Positions 132-32,087 of a stretch of 64,000 nt of DNA are shown one piece after another. The position numbers and the translations under genes are program-made. The notes beneath the pieces are model-generated. The model ran no database searches. It saw nothing but the letters and a program-made list of their open reading frames with translations, and was not told the origin of the DNA. The DNA lies in IMG/VR virus record IMGVR_UViG_3300037452_000118, positions 32,001 to 96,000 of that record; one strand, 5' to 3'. Position 1 is the stretch's first letter. Each line of letters starts with the position of its first letter. The stretch comes from a virus.

Positions 132-1052
132 ATGAGATTCCGCTTCACCCTCGTGGTCTGGGGCGATTGGCACATCGGCCAGTTCGTCAGGCACGGCCTG
201 CCCAGCCTGCGGGCGCCGGGCAACCTCGACGCGATCGACCACGTCGTTTCCGCGAAGACACGGCCGTCGGACCTGGAGCGCGTGCGCGCGGCGCTGGACG
301 GCGTCAACGCCGAGATCGAAGCGCTGCTTCCCGACGACATCGGCTCCGACCAGGCGACCTGCAACACGGCGGTCTTCACGCACAACGTCGACGACCGATC
401 CGCCGCCGCCCAGGCCGGGGAGGCCTGGGGACTGCTGTCGCCCGACATGGTGTGGGGCGAGGGAACGTGGGCGCACCACCGCGCCGCGCTGGAGGGCGGC
501 GCGAAGGCGGTCTTCCGCCCGCTGCTGCGCGTCGACTCCGAACGCGCCGGGACGATCCGCGATTTCCGCAGACGCAGCCTCGCCGCGACCGCCTTGGAGC
601 ACGAGCACGCGATCGCGCGGACGGACTACCGCGCCGGCGGGGAGAGGTTCTCGCCGCACGCCGAGATGATTATCTGGGAGGCGCCGGGTTGGCTGATCAA
701 CCGGACCATCACCGCTGAAGTCCAGACCTGCATCCCGGCTGCGGTGCCGTTCAACTCGCAGGGTTTGTCGGCGCTGCCGCTGGACGGCGAGATGTGCGTG
801 GTCCGCGACAGCGACGAGGCGATCGCGGTGGCGATGTGCCCGCCGGACAAGGACTTCGGCTGGCTGCAGGGGACGCGACCGCTCGATGTCGACCTTGTCC
901 GCGGTTTCCTGCGGTCCTACAACTCGCCGGCATCGAGGAACATCGCGCGCCAATCCTACCACCTGCATGCGGGCGACATCGTCGATGCCGAGATATGGAA
1001 AACGGTATTAGATCGTAGATCAGACGATTTCATCACGGAGGTCTTCGCGTGA
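132..1052 (+). CDS. Putative glycosyltransferase-like (GT-A-like) hypothetical protein
   Basis: ORF 102..1052; ATG at 132 follows AAGGGG. N-terminus FTLVVWG..LPSLRAPGNL and SPDMVW resemble nucleotide-sugar transferase-like proteins; similar to ORF 5724..6647. Confidence 0.45.
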   Translation: MRFRFTLVVWGDWHIGQFVRHGLPSLRAPGNLDAIDHVVSAKTRPSDLERVRAALDGVNAEIEALLPDDIGSDQATCNTAVFTHNVDDRSAAAQAGEAWGLLSPDMVWGEGTWAHHRAALEGGAKAVFRPLLRVDSERAGTIRDFRRRSLAATALEHEHAIARTDYRAGGERFSPHAEMIIWEAPGWLINRTITAEVQTCIPAAVPFNSQGLSALPLDGEMCVVRDSDEAIAVAMCPPDKDFGWLQGTRPLDVDLVRGFLRSYNSPASRNIARQSYHLHAGDIVDAEIWKTVLDRRSDDFITEVFA

Positions 1053-2167
1053 ACCTGCACCTCGCGTCAGACCTGCTCCTGGACAAGCATCTTCCGGAGC
1101 CGGAGCCTGTCCCCGACAAGGCGGCCTACCTCCGCGAGCGCGAGGCCTGCCTGGCGCTGTCGCCGGCGGCGCGCGAGAACTGGGAGCGCTACGAGCGCTC
1201 GACGAGGCGCGAGGCGGAGCTGGACTACCTGCCGGTCCGGCTCGACGTCGAGAACGTCAGCCGCTGCAATTTTCGTTGCACCATGTGCCAGGTCAGCGAC
1301 TGGCCGAAGGGCCAGCGCGCCGCCGACATGAGCCTCGACGACTTCAAGCGGCTGCTCGACGAGCAGGTCGGAGTCGTAGAGCTGAAAATCCAGGGCTTCG
1401 GCGAGCCGACGATGGGCGCCCACTATTTTGAAATGATCCAATACGCGAGGGCGCGGCGGATATGGGTGCGCACCATCACCAACGCCTCGCGGCTGCATTT
1501 GAGAAACACGTTTCAAAAGTTGGTCGATACCGACGTGAACGAAATCCAAATATCAATAGACGGCGCAACGAAGGAAGTCTTCGAGGGCATCCGGCGCGGC
1601 TCGGTGTTCGAGCAGGTCGTGAAGAATTGCGCGCTGATCAATGGCTATGCAAAAGCCCAGGGCAAGCTACGAACCAAAATGTGGACTGTCGTGCAACAAA
1701 CCAACGCGCACCAGCTCGACGACCTGGTCGACCTCGCCTACGACGCCGGCTTTGCGCATTTGGTTTTTTCATTTGAATTGATTGATTTTGGGCAGCCGAA
1801 ATGGAAGGAGACGAACGATGCCGCCTCGGTCGCGGATCGGATAAGCCTCGCGGAATGTTGGCGGCTGCACCATCGCGCCAAGGCGCTCGGCGTCCGATTG
1901 GGTTTTTGGTTTGCCAACGAACGCTATAGCTATGAGGCGGGCAACCCGGAAAAGCTATGCTCGTGGCCGTTTCAGTCTGCCTACATCTCGTCCGACATGA
2001 AAATCGTACCGTGCTGTATAATTGGAAACCCCGAAGTTAGCAATTTCGGCGATGCCCGCAAGCTCACTGAACTTTGGAATGGCCCCGCCATCAAGGCTTT
2101 CCGTGAGGGTCATTTGACGGGGTGTGTTCCGGATATTTGCAGGTCCTGTTATAAGGGGAATCGCTGA
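1049..2167 (+). CDS. Radical SAM protein with C-terminal SPASM/twitch domain
   Basis: CNFRCTMC (CxxxCxxC), GFGEP, ISIDG motifs; C-terminal CSWPF..VPCC..CRSC. Confidence 0.92.
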   Translation: MNLHLASDLLLDKHLPEPEPVPDKAAYLREREACLALSPAARENWERYERSTRREAELDYLPVRLDVENVSRCNFRCTMCQVSDWPKGQRAADMSLDDFKRLLDEQVGVVELKIQGFGEPTMGAHYFEMIQYARARRIWVRTITNASRLHLRNTFQKLVDTDVNEIQISIDGATKEVFEGIRRGSVFEQVVKNCALINGYAKAQGKLRTKMWTVVQQTNAHQLDDLVDLAYDAGFAHLVFSFELIDFGQPKWKETNDAASVADRISLAECWRLHHRAKALGVRLGFWFANERYSYEAGNPEKLCSWPFQSAYISSDMKIVPCCIIGNPEVSNFGDARKLTELWNGPAIKAFREGHLTGCVPDICRSCYKGNR

Positions 2168-2177
2168 ATCAACTCTA

Positions 2178-2216
2178 TTGACTTATAATTATCGCGTGGT
2201 GTAGGAATGGTTCCTA
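2178..2216 (+). promoter_or_regulatory. Putative sigma70-type promoter with palindromic operator
   Basis: TTGACT at 2178; AT-rich spacer; inverted repeat TAGGAA-tgg-TTCCTA (2202-2216) over the -10 region, ending at the RHH start codon. Confidence 0.5.
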
Positions 2217-2368
2217 TGAGAACCACGCACAAGCAGACGATTACCTTCACGAAACCAGAGATCGACTACCTGCGGATCGAGGCTAAACGCCTCGGCATAT
2301 CCGTGGCCGATCTTGTGCGGCGGATCATAGATCAGCACCAAGAGAGCCAAAGGAAAGCAGCAAAATGA
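2216..2368 (+). CDS. Ribbon-helix-helix (CopG-like) regulator, 50 aa
   Basis: Hand translation MRTTHKQTITFTKPEIDYLRIEAKRLGISVADLVRRIIDQH...; beta-strand then GISVADLVRR helix pattern; ATGA overlap with the next gene. Absent from the ORF track because it is short. Confidence 0.8.
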   Translation: MRTTHKQTITFTKPEIDYLRIEAKRLGISVADLVRRIIDQHQESQRKAAK

Positions 2369-3177
2369 ACAAACCAATCCAAGCCGAAGAGGCCGTTACC
2401 GTTGCCGAGATACAGATGACCGAGATGAGCTTCAACATCGTCGGGACATCCCCTCTCGTGATCCATGCTATGAGCGCGAAGAGCAAAGGCTCTCTGCTCT
2501 TTCCATCTCCGCGCAAGAATGCGACGGAGCGAGCGACGACGATGAAGCACGAACCATATGAGGAGTTTCTCGGCGCTTGCTATCGCTTCAGGGACGCCGA
2601 CAAATCGCCGACCCGGCTCTATATGCCGGCCGGAGCTTTTCATGCCGCGATGGCCAACTCCGCGATTGATATGGTCGGCGCTAAGAAAGCGCAGATCGGG
2701 CGCTTGACTACGGTACCCGGCGGCAAGATTCCAATCTTCGGTGTGCCGCAACTCTGGATGACCACCGTCAGGTCGAGCGACATGGCGCGAACACCGGACA
2801 TTCGCACGCTGCCGATCCTGCCGTCATGGTGCGCCACGATCACGGTGCAGTTCGTCGGTAGCCTGATCAAGCAGCAGTCGATCGCCAATCTGCTCGCTGC
2901 CGCTGGCGTCATCATTGGTATCGGTGACGGGCGCCCAGAGAAGGGCAAATTGTCGATGGGCCAGTTTCGCCTTTGCTCCGACGATGATCTAGAGTTTTTG
3001 CGGATCGTGAAGCAAGGCGTAACCGCGCAGGATAAGGCGCTTGCCGACCCGGCGACTTTCGACGAGGAAACTGCAGAACTTTGGGATTGGTTCACAAAAG
3101 AAAAAACCAAACGGGCGGCGGCTCCGGCGTCAATACCGAAGCGCCCCCCCCAAGGCAGAGCATGCAGCGCGAGCTAA
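2365..3177 (+). CDS. Stand-alone Cas7/RAMP-like protein, candidate effector of the adjacent pentamer arrays
   Basis: RAMP-like motifs: N-terminal strand IVGTSPLVIH, LYMPAGAFHAAM (like the YIPGSSLKGA motif), W-x-x-T-I-T-V strand and Gly-rich loop GIGDGRPEKGK..GQF. No cas1/2/3/10 in the window. Confidence 0.75.
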   Translation: MNKPIQAEEAVTVAEIQMTEMSFNIVGTSPLVIHAMSAKSKGSLLFPSPRKNATERATTMKHEPYEEFLGACYRFRDADKSPTRLYMPAGAFHAAMANSAIDMVGAKKAQIGRLTTVPGGKIPIFGVPQLWMTTVRSSDMARTPDIRTLPILPSWCATITVQFVGSLIKQQSIANLLAAAGVIIGIGDGRPEKGKLSMGQFRLCSDDDLEFLRIVKQGVTAQDKALADPATFDEETAELWDWFTKEKTKRAAAPASIPKRPPQGRACSAS

Positions 3178-3188
3178 CGGCTCTTGAA

Positions 3189-4060
3189 ATCCAGTCCAGT
3201 TGGGACACGATAGCCCAGTCATATCTCGATGTGACGAGATACGACTAGATGCGACCGGGACCAACAAGACTTGATCGGTCAAGATGCGAACAGTCTTGAT
3301 GCGACGGGACCGGATATGATCCGATGAGCCGTGACTGGACCAACGCGACTAGACCGGACGCGACGCGATACGATCTGGCTAGATACGATGAGACCAATGC
3401 GATGCGTTTGGCCGAGTTCGGACGCGACATGATCCGCCGTGATGCGCTTTGCCAAGACGCGACCAACATGATGAGCCGTGACCAGCCACGATCAGACCCG
3501 ACGGGCCGGAGCGCGACTTGCTCAGACCAACAAGACCTGCCGAGCCGCGATCGGCCGCGCTGCGATACGATTGGACAGGACGTGTTTTGTCCAACATGAC
3601 CCGACTAGCGATGACGAGCGGTGCCGGGCCATGACGAGACCAACAAGCCAAGTCTGGACGTGCTCGGACGGAATATGATCGGACTGGACAAGACCAACAC
3701 GACAAGACTGGAGACGACGTGCGGAGCCGGGACCGGCCGCGACAACGCTGGACCTGACCAACGGGCCTAGAAGGGACCGGATTAGCAATGCCGTGGCGAG
3801 ACGGGACCGACAAGTCACGATCAGCCAAGTCCCGAGGAGCCAACGCGAGATCGGACATGCCAAGACCAACGAGGTTTGCTCAGATGAGCGAAGCCGCGAC
3901 GTGATCGGCCAAGACGTGACCAACGTGACTGGCTATGCCGAGATTGGCCCGGACCAGATGCCTTGGGACGAGACTTGAAATGCCGAGACCAACGAGCCGC
4001 GATGTGACCTGACGCGCTATGCCGCGATCAGTAGCGATGAGATGGGATAAGTTGCCAACC
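3189..4060 (+). repeat. Pentamer-periodic array 1, (G-led triplet + NN)n units separated by GACCAAC; candidate guide-RNA array
   Basis: Delimiters at 3259, 3338, 3392, 3461, 3525, 3589, 3638, 3692, 3756, 3805, 3864, 3918, 3987 (variants GACCAAT, GTCCAAC, GACCGAC). Spacings 79,54,69,64,64,49,54,64,49,59,54,69 are all 5n+4. Triplets are mostly GAC/GAT/GCC/GTC. Confidence 0.93.
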
Positions 4061-4076
4061 AAAGAGGAGGTTAAAA

Positions 4077-4571
4077 ATGTCGACCATGAAAATCCGCGCT
4101 GCGGCGATCAAAGCGATCGAGGATGAAGCCGGCAGAGTGACGGCGGAAGCGCTGGTATTGGCGGCGCGCGATCAAACCCATCCGCTGCACAAGGAGTTTC
4201 CCTGGGACGACAAAAAGGCGGCGCACCAGCATCGCCTCGATGTCGCCCGCCGTATAATCGCCAGCGTAAGGGTAACCATCACAACTACAACCAAGAAGGT
4301 AACCTGCGTTGGCTATGTCAGGGATCCTGAAGCCGGGCTACGACAGGGCTACGTCAGCACCGTCAAGCTGCGTACTGAGGCCGATGCTGCGCGGGAAGCC
4401 CTCGGCGCGGAGATCGCCAGGGTACAGAGCATTTTGGAAAGAGCGAAGGAACTCGCTGCAGGCCTCGAGCTTGACGAGGATTTTCAATTGTCTCTCGCCG
4501 GCGCCTTGGATTTTTCCAGCCGGATGCGAAAAGGACTCGGTTTTCCAGGAGATGGAAGAGCCTTGCAATAA
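4077..4571 (+). CDS. Phage hypothetical protein embedded between the two arrays (partner of the RAMP gene)
   Basis: Strong SD AGAGGAGG; motif TAEALVLAAR..HPLHKEFPWDD..AA..HRL..ARRII. Confidence 0.8.
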   Translation: MSTMKIRAAAIKAIEDEAGRVTAEALVLAARDQTHPLHKEFPWDDKKAAHQHRLDVARRIIASVRVTITTTTKKVTCVGYVRDPEAGLRQGYVSTVKLRTEADAAREALGAEIARVQSILERAKELAAGLELDEDFQLSLAGALDFSSRMRKGLGFPGDGRALQ

Positions 4572-4577
4572 AGCCTA

Positions 4578-4711
4578 AACGTACTGTGCCGTGTCACGTT
4601 ACGACATGATCGGACACGATCTGACGAGACCAACGCGACCTGACTCGTCTTGTTGCGGTGAGGCATGACATGATGCGATTTGTCGCGATCCGACTAGCCG
4701 CAGCAAGATGA
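4578..4711 (+). repeat. Pentamer-periodic array 2 (two units)
   Basis: aac gt/act gt/gcc gt/gtc ac/gtt ac/gac at/gat cg/gac ac/gat ct/gac ga, GACCAAC at 4628, then 15 further pentamers. Confidence 0.88.
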
Positions 4712-4725
4712 TCAAAGGGAAGCTA

Positions 4726-5727
4726 ATGATACTCTCTGTCGGGGAATACGATGCCCTTGAGCAGGAAGCTCGCTGCGGTCTTTCTTTTTGCGAGCTCATG
4801 GCCTTCGCGCCGCGCACTTTCGACATGCTCGGCTTCCCGCATCGCGTCGAGGATGAGCGGGAGCTCGTCCGCTACGCCGATTGGAATCGGGACACCGGAA
4901 ATCAAGAATACTTTCGGCCCGGCCATTTCTTCGGCGGCCCGGCCGTGCAGACCGACTTCACCGCCGATGAGGTCGAGATGATGAATCGCGTCCGCGACCA
5001 GGCCGTCGCGGCGACCACCAAGCTCGGCCGGCCGGTGCGGCCGCTGTGCAGTCCCTTCGCGCAGCTCGGCCTGTTTCGCATCTTGGCCGCCATCGGATTG
5101 CCTGGGCTCCGCGTCTTCGAGGTCGGCCCCGGTACCGCCTATCTCGGCGCCATGCTCATCAACGAAGGCGCGAGCTATTATTCTTTCACCGACAACGCCC
5201 AGGCGCTTTTCCTTTGGCAATGTCGCTTGATGGCCGAGGTCGGGTATCAACCGACGTCGCGCGCTGGGCTTCCGTGGTGGGACTTCGCCCGCGGCGTCAA
5301 CCTTCTTCCGGTCGATGTCGTGGTCTCCAACACCAACCTCGGCGAGATGACCGGCGACGCGCTCAAGATCACGGCGCACCGCGCGCGGCAGATGCTGGAG
5401 AGATCGCCGCTTGGTCTCTTCCTGTTCGTCAACGTCGGGGCGCCGATGTACAATTCGGAGGAGGGCGTCGACCGCGAGCTGCGCCGTGCCGGCTTCAGCC
5501 TCGTCGTCAACCGCTTTTTCCGCGCCTACCGGGCGCCCAACTCCGAGCCGCTCCCGGAGGCGGCGCTGGCCTTGGAGTTCGGCATGCCGCTCTATAATCC
5601 AAGCGGCAGGCCTGGCACGGTGTCCGGTGGCGAGGCCGTGTACATCCCCGACGACCAGCGCCCGCTCGACCTCGACGTTACGGAGCTGCTGGAGGGGTGG
5701 CGCCCGCCGGTGAGGAGCAAGCCATGA
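4726..5727 (+). CDS. SAM-dependent methyltransferase (putative sugar O-methyltransferase-like)
   Basis: Motif I VFEVGPGTAYLG, acidic FTD at strand 2, later DVVVSNTNLGEM. ATG 4726 preferred because 4708 lies inside array 2. Confidence 0.75.
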   Translation: MILSVGEYDALEQEARCGLSFCELMAFAPRTFDMLGFPHRVEDERELVRYADWNRDTGNQEYFRPGHFFGGPAVQTDFTADEVEMMNRVRDQAVAATTKLGRPVRPLCSPFAQLGLFRILAAIGLPGLRVFEVGPGTAYLGAMLINEGASYYSFTDNAQALFLWQCRLMAEVGYQPTSRAGLPWWDFARGVNLLPVDVVVSNTNLGEMTGDALKITAHRARQMLERSPLGLFLFVNVGAPMYNSEEGVDRELRRAGFSLVVNRFFRAYRAPNSEPLPEAALALEFGMPLYNPSGRPGTVSGGEAVYIPDDQRPLDLDVTELLEGWRPPVRSKP

Positions 5728-6647
5728 AGATCGAGGTCGTCGTCGCGGCGTGGGGACACTGGGCGCAGCGCTGGCGCAACCTCAACTGCGCCGTCGTGCG
5801 GGCCGAGGCCGACGACGTCGGCGGCACCTTGGTCGTCTACGCCGACGACGACGGCCGCGAGCGGCTGGCGGGGGAATGGATCGACGAGTTCAGGCCGCTG
5901 CCGGAGCCGGTGAGCTGGTTCGACCAGGCCGACGGCGCGCACGCCGACGCGATCGACCGGGCCCTGGCCGGCGGCTACGCCGTGGCGCCGCTGTGCGCGT
6001 CGCTCCGCCTCGGCAGGGGGACGCTCGCCGCCGCCAAGCGCCGGCTCGACGCCGGCTACCGGGCCTGCATGGCGCTCTGCGTCCCGGCCGGGGTGCCCGA
6101 CAAGGTCGAGACCGCCGCGGCGATGTCGGCCAAGCTCAAGCACGCCGGGTTCGGCTGGTGGGAGGGCAGGACGAGGACGACCCACCCCGGCCACTATGCC
6201 TGGCGCTCGGCCAACGGCGCCGTCCTGGTGCGGCCGATCTACCACCACCCCGTCCTCATCAGGCCGACGCGCGCCCACGCTCCGCGCCGCGCCGCCGACC
6301 ACTTCATGACCGAGGGCTACCTCGACGACGTCTCGCAGGTCGCGCAGCTCGACCCCCTCGACGGCTGCATCAGCGGCCTGCCGGCCCACGACGGCACCGG
6401 CCCTCCGCCGGGCCCGGCCAGGCCCCCGGAGAACCCGGCGCTGGCGGAGCCCGCCGGCATCGTGGGCTGGATGCTGTCCGGGGTCGGCGTCGCCGGCGGC
6501 GTCAACGTGATGCCCTGGAACCTGCACTACATGGCCCACCGCTTCTGGTGTGGCGAGCCCGGCGCCGACAGGCTAGAAGTTGAGATGGAATCGGACCGCG
6601 CCGTCGCCGAGATCAGGCGGATTTATTTTGAAAGGGTAGGAAAGTGA
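5724..6647 (+). CDS. Hypothetical protein, probable paralogue of 132..1052
   Basis: SD GAGGAG; N-terminus IEVVVAAWG and similar length and layout to the first ORF. Confidence 0.5.
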   Translation: MKIEVVVAAWGHWAQRWRNLNCAVVRAEADDVGGTLVVYADDDGRERLAGEWIDEFRPLPEPVSWFDQADGAHADAIDRALAGGYAVAPLCASLRLGRGTLAAAKRRLDAGYRACMALCVPAGVPDKVETAAAMSAKLKHAGFGWWEGRTRTTHPGHYAWRSANGAVLVRPIYHHPVLIRPTRAHAPRRAADHFMTEGYLDDVSQVAQLDPLDGCISGLPAHDGTGPPPGPARPPENPALAEPAGIVGWMLSGVGVAGGVNVMPWNLHYMAHRFWCGEPGADRLEVEMESDRAVAEIRRIYFERVGK

Positions 6648-6823
6648 ACTTAGCGGAGCGGAGGCGGGGAAAGCAGACCCGCACGGACTGGACACAGGTA
6701 CGCAGGGAATTAGGGGCGCAAGCTCCGTGAATTGCGACGCACCTCAGCGGGTTCGATTCCCGACGGTCATCAACGAAATAGCGATGAAGCTGGAGTAGCG
6801 CCCAGCCCGCTCCGCTAAGTTCA
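6645..6823 (+). ncRNA. Candidate structured tRNA-like ncRNA
   Basis: Perfect 17-bp terminal inverted repeat (6645-6661 / 6807-6823) enclosing a GCGGG..CCCGC hairpin, a T-arm motif CGGGTTCGATTCCCG and a GCTGG-AGTAGCGC-CCAGC hairpin. Confidence 0.55.
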
Positions 6824-6852
6824 TACGAGCTAAAGCCGCAAAGGAGGATCAA

Positions 6853-31562: not shown

Positions 31563-32087
31563 TCAGCCTATTTCCCCAATCTCGTGAATAATTCCGGCTT
31601 TCAATGCAGCATCTGGGTCGATCGTGCCGGGGTTGCGAAAGTAGGTTTCAACGTCCTTGGCAGAGAGATTAGTGCGCTCGACAATAATGTCGGTCATAAT
31701 CTTCTCGCCAATCTTCAGCGTCTCTAGCGCATCTTCATAGACAACGCGGTGTGAGGTTCCTTGGAGCGGATAGAATGTTCCGTGGTGGCGGAAATAACTG
31801 TGCTTGCAAGCTCGTCGTTTTTCACCCGCTAAAAATATAATATTTGCGCCCGATGTCACCTCACCGATGTTGTGAGTGGTAACCGGAATTTTTATTGAGC
31901 GCAGAATATTATAGATCGCTATAGATGCTCCAATATCACCTCCAAGGCTGCTGATCGGAATAATTAGTTCCGTGATAGCTTTTGACGGGTCAGCCTGCGG
32001 GACAGCAAGTTGCGAAGCCAATTGGAATACTGAAGCTACGATGGTGTGGTCCAGACTCCCCACGATGTAGAATGAGTATGTGGTCAT
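31563..32087 (-). CDS. ClpP-like serine protease (IS passenger)
   Basis: ISSLGGDI..IYNILR..HNIGEVTSGANIIFLAGEKR..HG; low GC. Confidence 0.8.
   Translation of the reverse strand: MTTYSFYIVGSLDHTIVASVFQLASQLAVPQADPSKAITELIIPISSLGGDIGASIAIYNILRSIKIPVTTHNIGEVTSGANIIFLAGEKRRACKHSYFRHHGTFYPLQGTSHRVVYEDALETLKIGEKIMTDIIVERTNLSAKDVETYFRNPGTIDPDAALKAGIIHEIGEIG

Follow-up and report, generated by a model that had tools for sequence, protein, structure and literature searches.

A VIPR locus of a soil phage whose two outermost guides best match the genes at its own borders

The window analyzed here, a 64,000-nucleotide stretch of viral DNA (positions 32,001 to 96,000 of IMG/VR record IMGVR_UViG_3300037452_000118), carries at positions 2207 to 4709 a soil-phage locus of the VIPR (Viral Interference Programmable Repeat) kind, in which genes for a Vipr RAMP protein and an accessory protein are accompanied by two vrRNA arrays. 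The first full guide and the last guide of these arrays, and no others, find their best matches in the entire phage genome in the two genes that border the module, and many of the corresponding proteins of relatives would match the two guides more closely than those of the phage itself. As judged from the sequences compared, the outer guides most likely target the alleles of relatives, from which the phage's own alleles escape.

Proteins and arrays of the locus

VIPR was described in 2026 as the combination of a phage-borne Vipr RAMP protein, an accessory vap gene, and vrRNAs that serves in phage-versus-phage competition (bioRxiv 10.64898/2026.04.26.720920). According to the main account in that preprint, the vrRNAs are built of 9 to 16 YNNGG repeats, the NN bases of which pair with double-stranded DNA but pass over one target base in three, usually the wobble position of a codon; targets lie on either strand without a PAM, and the types tested silence their targets rather than cutting them. 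Its authors call a target at 80%, and the surveys published there report no self matches of 80% or more (10.64898/2026.04.26.720920). In the structure presented in a further preprint, each repeat is held by one Vipr protomer, with GGY buried and NN presented (10.64898/2026.04.26.720927).

The central gene of the locus, vipr (2365 to 3177, plus strand, 270 aa), encodes a Vipr-family, Cas7-like RAMP protein, which belongs to no Pfam family and matches phrog_4652 (E = 3.9e-16). Vipr proteins are minimal RAMPs that comprise an RRM core, a G-loop, and a thumb. Its AlphaFold model (pLDDT 83.5) recovered 33 PDB matches at an E value of 0.001 or less in Foldseek, those listed being type III/VII Cas7-family chains or complexes (Csm3, Cmr, and Cas7), and a profile built from 32 of its homologues retrieved the chain deposited as "SUSP1 Vipr protein" (PDB 36pp_D; E = 3.8e-4) with the glycine-rich G-loop aligned (...G(I/V)GD.RP..G...). 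Upward of 600 homologues from metagenomes were collected, and the cluster representatives numbered 1585 at E values up to 0.001. The gene is preceded by a small ORF (2207 to 2368, plus strand, 53 aa) resembling ribbon-helix-helix proteins, a possible regulator with two weak sub-cut-off matches, one NikA-like (E = 0.0034) and the other to the BrnA antitoxin (E = 0.0012). Between the arrays lies a vap-like accessory gene (4077 to 4571, plus strand, 164 aa; phrog_15946, E = 4.8e-16), a homologue of which adjoins vipr in 72 of 85 related loci. The model of its product (pLDDT 79.8) has no significant fold match in Foldseek or VIA, the top rows being forkhead/winged-helix domains at an E value of about 1 in the former and helical hairpins with Z scores of at most 6.5 in the latter.

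Period-5 arrays stand beside the vipr homologue in 78 of 82 related loci, with GGC, GGT, GCC, GTC, or GAC as the conserved triplet. The locus in the window thus combines what characterizes VIPR, namely a RAMP protein, pentamer vrRNA arrays, the linkage of arrays, vipr, and vap, and the rule of the 1-nt skip. The last of these had been re-derived from the raw sequence alone in the original prediction, where the NN of each pentamer were read with one skipped base in codon phase; this decoding is identical to the rule set out in the text of the VIPR preprint. An earlier reading of the arrays as a TRAP-like protein-binding RNA with meaningless spacers was dropped because the Vipr protein has a RAMP fold and the VIPR papers describe just such a system. 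Scans of the region returned no consensus promoter, no Rfam family, and no tRNA or tmRNA with ARAGORN.

Some variation was seen at the 3' end of vipr. In the window (3140 to 3190), the ORF ends in ...PPQGRACSAS after a run of seven C residues (3143 to 3149), while the homologue of 95% identity (P0001), like most family members, runs in another frame to a conserved ...NG.. tail, which can also be read from the window with a shift of one frame. The version in the window is present in five contigs, and one variant contig has a 4-base deletion at 3144, so that either a real frameshifted C terminus or a slippery tract may be at hand. A contig of depth 2, the shorter side of which spans 23 bases, links 3211 with 4617 across 16 letters of other sequence; it may stem from a variant that lacks both the accessory gene and array 1, or it may be an artefact. 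Further downstream, the intergenic stretch 6650 to 6835 holds a long inverted repeat (AACTTAGCGGAGCGG ... CCGCTCCGCTAAGTT) around a T-arm-like GGTTCGATTCCC, for which ARAGORN reported no tRNA or tmRNA and Rfam nothing at gathering score.

The array stretches are non-coding and consist of five-base units, in each of which a variable dinucleotide precedes G, then usually A or C, then a pyrimidine. Of 150 pentamers, 145 have G at position 3, 93 have A and 37 have C at position 4, and 139 have C or T at position 5; the two NN positions carry 0.12 and 0.00 bits of information, and the triplet carries 1.76, 0.56, and 0.69 bits, with GAC (56 pentamers), GAT (32), and GCC (24) as its counts. When the NN composition of all 150 pentamers was compared under six phase and strand models, positions 1 and 2 of sense codons gave the best fit (logL −399.6, against −410.8 for the next). 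Array 1, on the plus strand, opens with a short degenerate leader (3226 to 3265), which by direct reading has about 7 pentamers with a 1-nt slip and a CAAC end. It continues with twelve regular units of 9 to 15 NN+G-N-Y pentamers (3266 to 4059), mostly closed by CAAC; the stretch 3813 to 3870 contains short slipped units. The first of these units (3266 to 3344, 15 pentamers plus CAAC) is the first full-length guide. Array 2, on the same strand, has one unit of 9 pentamers plus CAAC (4586 to 4634) and the last unit (4635 to 4709), in which 12 regular pentamers (4635 to 4694) give way to three degenerate ones reaching into the start codon of the gene that follows. The pentamers of this last guide from 4640 to 4694 are CTGAC TCGTC TTGTT GCGGT GAGGC ATGAC ATGAT GCGAT TTGTC GCGAT CCGAC. 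Since the units are parted by CAAC or CAAT alone, the architecture is not of the SUSP1 type. We infer that the guides are transcribed, processed at CAAC, and bound by Vipr.

Matches of the outer guides at the two borders

The upstream flank of the module is a radical SAM/SPASM gene (1049 to 2167, plus strand, 372 aa; Pfam Radical_SAM, E = 1.1e-15, and SPASM, E = 1e-8), and the downstream flank is a 339-aa ORF (4708 to 5727, plus strand). The latter had been labeled a methyltransferase, a label that the searches support weakly: the ORF has no Pfam match, and its NCBIfam match to CpaM (E = 3.1e-4) is far below the cut-off, so that its product is possibly a class I methyltransferase-like protein. 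The match reported in the original prediction, between pentamers 4640 to 4694 and codons 4780 to 4812 of this ORF (LSFCELMAFAP), was reproduced in full, with 9 of 11 dinucleotides and 19 of 22 nucleotides identical, in frame and in the same sense.

We then scanned the complete genome (128,813 bp) on both strands with the NN series of each unit at a target period of 3. The one top-scoring match of the last unit lies at 4777, with 21 of 30 bases over 15 pentamers (next best, 19); the site itself covers codons 24 to 35 of the downstream ORF (4777 to 4812, plus strand), where the score is 20 of 24 if counted from 4777. The first full unit has its single best match at 2096, with 22 of 30 nucleotides (next best, 19), in frame over the peptide AFREGHLTGCVPDIC of the radical SAM gene (2096 to 2140, plus strand); this site ends 27 nt, stop codon included, before the end of the gene. 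Both sites lie roughly 30 to 130 nt outside the borders of the module, in frame and in the same sense. No standout match was found anywhere in the genome for the other 11 units scanned. The first unit of array 2 has a best self score of 13 of 18, which falls inside the range of its shuffles. Target periods of 2, 4, and 6 gave no higher local score, and period 5 returned only the guide's own unmasked array. The claim that guides match both flanks of the module was therefore upheld, and in a sharper form: the first full and last guides alone place their genome-wide best matches there.

Might these matches be a coincidence, or might the guides be ancestral leftovers without a present target? The self scores by themselves leave some room for such a reading. 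When the guides were shuffled and scanned genome-wide, the 19 of 22 of the last guide was reached by 4 of 1000 shuffled guides, its 15-pentamer score of 21 of 30 by 149 of 1000, and the 22 of 30 of the first guide by 15 of 1000; under a stricter local score, the figure was 7 of 100 shuffles for the last unit, and the first unit yielded nothing. That the other 11 guides were scanned without an identifiable target would likewise suit relics. The improbable part is the position: of 13 guides, precisely the two outermost ones have their best match in the genome in the border that each faces, and both do so in frame. The matches stand above chance because they sit at the module borders and because homologues of the two genes fit the guides far better than shuffled guides do, with 0 of 500 shuffles for each guide reaching the family-level scores given below; the guides moreover spell residues that the majority of each family has. 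Under permutation, the significance of the match was moderate for the self score alone and higher at the level of the families. Chance alone is already very unlikely, and we regard chance and relics taken together as highly improbable.

Homologues were scored by the number of guide bases that their residues could match with the most favorable codons, only amino acid sequences being used. The searches found 1038 radical SAM homologues and 55 homologues of the downstream ORF, and the scores below are for 119 and 52 of them, respectively. For the last guide, 24 of the 52 score higher than the phage itself (19 of 22), and 7, which have the peptide LSFAEIMAFAP, allow a perfect 22 of 22. For the first guide, 81 of 119 exceed the self score of 22 of 30, with 60 reaching 80% and the best reaching 27 of 30. 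The family-level scores subjected to shuffling were 23 of 24 for the last guide and 27 of 30 for the first. All 13 guides were also tested, in either orientation, on the Vipr family, the radical SAM family, and the family of the downstream gene; the outer two alone beat their shuffles, each on the family of its own flank. The expectation that the alleles of relatives would fit both guides better than self was therefore borne out at the protein level, while an exact search of IMG/VR with the gapped 22-base pattern of the last guide, which had been proposed along with it, returned 0 matches.

At the upstream codons where guide and self differ, the guide spells the family-majority residues Ala (97 of 119), Arg (48 of 119), Ile (84 of 119), and Val (76 of 119), and the phage has Gly, Cys, Val, and Ile, respectively, in their place; at the downstream ones it spells the family-majority residues Ala (19 of 52) and Ile/Met (34 of 53), and the phage has Cys for Ala and Leu for Ile. 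All of these self residues, that is, Cys and Leu downstream and Gly, Cys, Val, and Ile upstream, are the rarer ones in their families.

This pattern also bears on whether the guides might act on the phage itself, with Vipr filaments, bound where the upstream gene ends and where the downstream gene begins, insulating the cassette or tuning expression of its neighbors. The two sites do bracket the cassette, and if the last guide is taken as 12 pentamers its self match is 20 of 24, or 83%, which exceeds the 80% threshold used by the VIPR authors in their main account, so that there is still scope for self-binding. A self-regulatory guide, however, should match self best, whereas these guides spell the family consensus, not self, at nearly every mismatched codon, and the published surveys, as far as their text goes, are without self matches of 80% or more and have self scores lower than non-self ones. 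Self-regulation consequently appears quite improbable to us, and the targeting of relatives' alleles remains the preferred reading.

Relatives of the phage and recurrence in other loci

Searches for DNA of close relatives recovered little. GenBank phages, for which either Vipr or the protein encoded downstream served as the tblastn query, contained no relative, nor did viral contigs searched with the single Vipr protein, and IMG/VR has no close relative of the phage. From a metagenome scan came just three contigs of at most about 2 kb, and a viral scan with an alignment of the downstream gene yielded only one locus, 35% identical and without a radical SAM or Vipr gene. Four soil sequencing runs, compared at a likeness of at least 80%, gave only short fragments, and none of their contigs joins the radical SAM gene to the downstream gene; the runs that contain the stretch are all DNA runs. 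Homologues of both flanks occur on contigs of the same size in at least seven cases (6,428, 22,387, 121,209, and 73,322 nt and others), and of these sizes only 104,239 nt recurs among the 120 best Vipr homologues; this is only a hint that flank homologues reside on contigs apparently without a close Vipr. The 104,239-nt contig (P0001, P0326, and P0281) encodes a Vipr 95% identical to ours, alongside a radical SAM protein of 80% and a downstream protein of 64% identity, a mosaic that suggests either exchange of the cassette or fast-evolving flanks. A 3,520-nt contig has a Vipr in the same 90% cluster as that of the window. These two relatives seem to carry the cassette already, and their radical SAM alleles would match the first guide at 26 of 30 and 25 of 30 positions. 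The alleles of cassette-bearing relatives would thus still be matched, and the rivals need not be cassette-free, as the original prediction had supposed.

A homing or drive process, also raised in the original prediction, would have the outer guides disable or block both sides of an empty or rival site, after which the only viable recombinants would be those that had copied the cassette together with its resistant flanks; the cassette would in this way be converted into the rival genome and spread among related ones. Homing calls for a nuclease or for some other step that breaks DNA. Targets within about 30 to 130 nt of either cassette border would be apt for such a process; the self sites are mismatched, as in resistant self alleles that withstand a nuclease; and the mosaic 104,239-nt relative would fit movement of the cassette. 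Yet no nuclease domain was found with Pfam, PHROGs, or NCBIfam in the ribbon-helix-helix-like ORF, Vipr, or the accessory ORF, the last of which has an unmatched fold; the VIPRs characterized in the preprints silence and do not cut; the sequencing runs examined contain no cassette-free junction; and the relatives that can be placed appear to bear the cassette already. On balance, we hold homing to be unlikely.

Across 74 to 82 related loci covered by the targeting tests, the arrangement seen in the window is not general, although these tests have low power because the loci sample very diverse phages. Matches to the own locus are not enriched among 493 non-redundant units (9 at P < 0.01 and 17 at P < 0.05), cross-locus matches of at least 85% number 24 against 18 with shuffled guides, showing no general enrichment, and matches of at least 80% to the downstream flanks of other loci number 5 against 3.4. 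The exception by category is the vipr genes of other loci, with 13 matches against 2.8 shuffled, an excess that agrees with the guides against rival VIPR systems described in the published text. Last units also gave a small signal when compared with the 800 same-strand bases that follow them: 5 of 80 had P < 0.01, and of the internal units 3 of 334 did; these matches are in frame and lie in capsid-protease or terminase genes. In two loci, the gene just downstream is matched better in a relative than in self: the last guide of L044 scores 18 of 24 on itself and 21 of 24 on the homologous site of its relative L042, and that of L010 scores 15 of 22 on itself and 19 of 22 on L043.

Several individual loci deserve mention in their own right. 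The VIPR cassette lies directly upstream of a prohead protease-major capsid fusion gene in L010 and L015 and directly upstream of the large terminase gene in L017, which places it next to core genes of morphogenesis. The guide at L018:8044-8098 matches the VR(N/S)SD..RTPD motif in the vipr genes of L049, L022, L026, L076, and others at 18 to 20 of 22 positions and that in its own vipr at 16 of 22; for Arg the own gene uses AGA, against CG in the guide, and for Ser it uses TCT, against AG. The predicted self-escape of L018 is hence a switch between six-fold codon families, which wobble skipping cannot see. Another guide of this locus (L018:6866-6930), the last unit of the array upstream of vipr, matches a coding site at L022:5657 (peptide AELYAEKKGLRPP), about 1.3 kb upstream of vipr, at 25 of 26 positions and thereby provides the strongest natural cross-locus target seen. 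A different array architecture is present in an archaeal MAG contig (L082, 8400 to 8950), where pentamer tracts of the NN+GGT type come after a Vipr-like gene of 26% identity and a conserved AT-rich spacer (TTTCAAAAATCATATT...) lies between the tracts.

Proposed role and comparison with known systems

We propose a mechanism that follows the published VIPRs. One Vipr protomer would cover each pentamer, burying the conserved G-A/C-Y and presenting the two variable bases; the NN would pair with double-stranded DNA, skipping every third (wobble) base, and the bound complex would silence its target. The first full and last guides would be aimed at conserved, codon-phased motifs of the bordering genes in the allelic form common among related phages, such that a rival's copies of the neighboring genes would be bound and silenced in co-infecting or resident relatives, presumably to the advantage of the phage that carries the cassette. 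The phage's own alleles carry amino acid changes at exactly the mismatched target codons, which lower the self match; escape would come about by amino acid replacement because wobble skipping removes most synonymous escape. With the targets located beside the cassette, the guides and the resistance alleles would stay tightly linked. We consider it probable that the outer guides serve competition in this manner, silencing the neighboring genes of relatives while resistant self alleles remain linked to the cassette; a role in phage competition, as had been anticipated for the module, is the one given to VIPR in the preprint text. A bolder version, which strikes us as unlikely, is that the cassette is a linkage-protected selfish element, in which the outer guides silence the common flank alleles of any co-infecting relative and a rival can regain these genes solely by acquisition of the resistant flanks together with the cassette, a kind of RNA-guided "homing without a nuclease." If true, it would be a drive of the poison-antidote type, made up of a silencer plus two escape alleles.

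Natural VIPR targets are known, from the preprints' text, for a few Escherichia and Pseudomonas clades. The present locus would add a soil-phage VIPR of the GAC/NN type whose own flank genes appear to have paid for immunity with amino acid changes in motifs that are otherwise conserved. Were this borne out in nucleotide sequences, it would offer a simple, testable case of how self-silencing is avoided when wobble skipping removes synonymous escape, a hint that the choice of guides and the position of the cassette are coupled, with a bearing on how VIPR cassettes spread, and natural pairs of matched and escaped targets with which mismatch tolerance could be gauged.

Among known systems, the backbone of Class 1 CRISPR-Cas (the Cas7/Csm3/Cmr4 filament) shares its fold with Vipr by Foldseek and likewise forms a guide-RNA filament with periodic base flipping. 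The periods are 6 and 6 in Class 1 CRISPR-Cas, whereas in VIPR they are 5 on the guide and 3 on the target. The locus has period-5 arrays only and no repeat-spacer array, and no Cas-family name was returned by Pfam or NCBIfam among seven ORFs scanned across 132 to 6647; in these features, it differs from a CRISPR-Cas system.

Free-standing homing endonucleases of phages, which bring about intronless homing, offer another parallel: their cassettes lie between two genes, their sites are in the neighboring genes of relatives, and self is protected by sequence differences. In the present locus, RNA-guided recognition would replace that of the endonuclease, and no nuclease was detected here.

The closest relationship is with VIPR itself. 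As in the systems described in the main text of 10.64898/2026.04.26.720920, there is a phage-borne RAMP protein with a G-loop that aligns to that of SUSP1 Vipr, an adjacent small accessory gene, arrays of 9 to 15 pentamers with three conserved and two hypervariable bases, and predicted targets that are read as codon-phased NN plus a skip, lie in coding sequences of related elements, and have a lower self-match. The differences concern the conserved triplet, which is G-A/C-Y here and GGY in the published account, the size of Vipr (270 aa, compared with 202 aa for the solved SUSP1 chain), and the residue aligned with SUSP1 W178, reported to stack on G2, which is Gly in the Vipr family of this locus. 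SUSP1-type (type II) systems, one of the seven VIPR types, are further described as having a pseudoknot tail of about 40 nt on each tract, which is missing here, where the units abut with CAAC between them; in this respect, the arrays are closer to the "staggered arrays" of the fig. S18 legend of the same preprint. Arrays of the GAC/NN kind beside Vipr-like folds are named in 10.64898/2026.10.21.760802, and the present ones can be likened to these non-canonical arrays by their text description, although the motifs there repeat 10 times and the units here have 9 to 15 repeats.

The solo and native vrRNAs of 10.64898/2026.10.15.759431 are comparable in aim. According to its text, their guides are directed against close relatives with a lower self-match than non-self match, and the present guides share with them the aim at homologous sequences of relatives and the sparing of self, as does the L018 guide that matches the vipr genes of other loci better than its own. 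Their targets are vipr genes, vrRNAs, and satellites, whereas here they are predicted to be two ordinary genes bordering the cassette, with self-escape by amino acid replacement in conserved motifs. The VIPR system, its code, its inter-phage role, the lower self-match, and the GAC/NN variants are thus already in print (April to October 2026). Guides against ordinary cassette-bordering genes with protein-level self-escape were not found in the text of these preprints, their supplements aside, and the predicted targeting of its own flanking genes in relatives is apparently an unreported twist that this locus adds to the VIPR repertoire.
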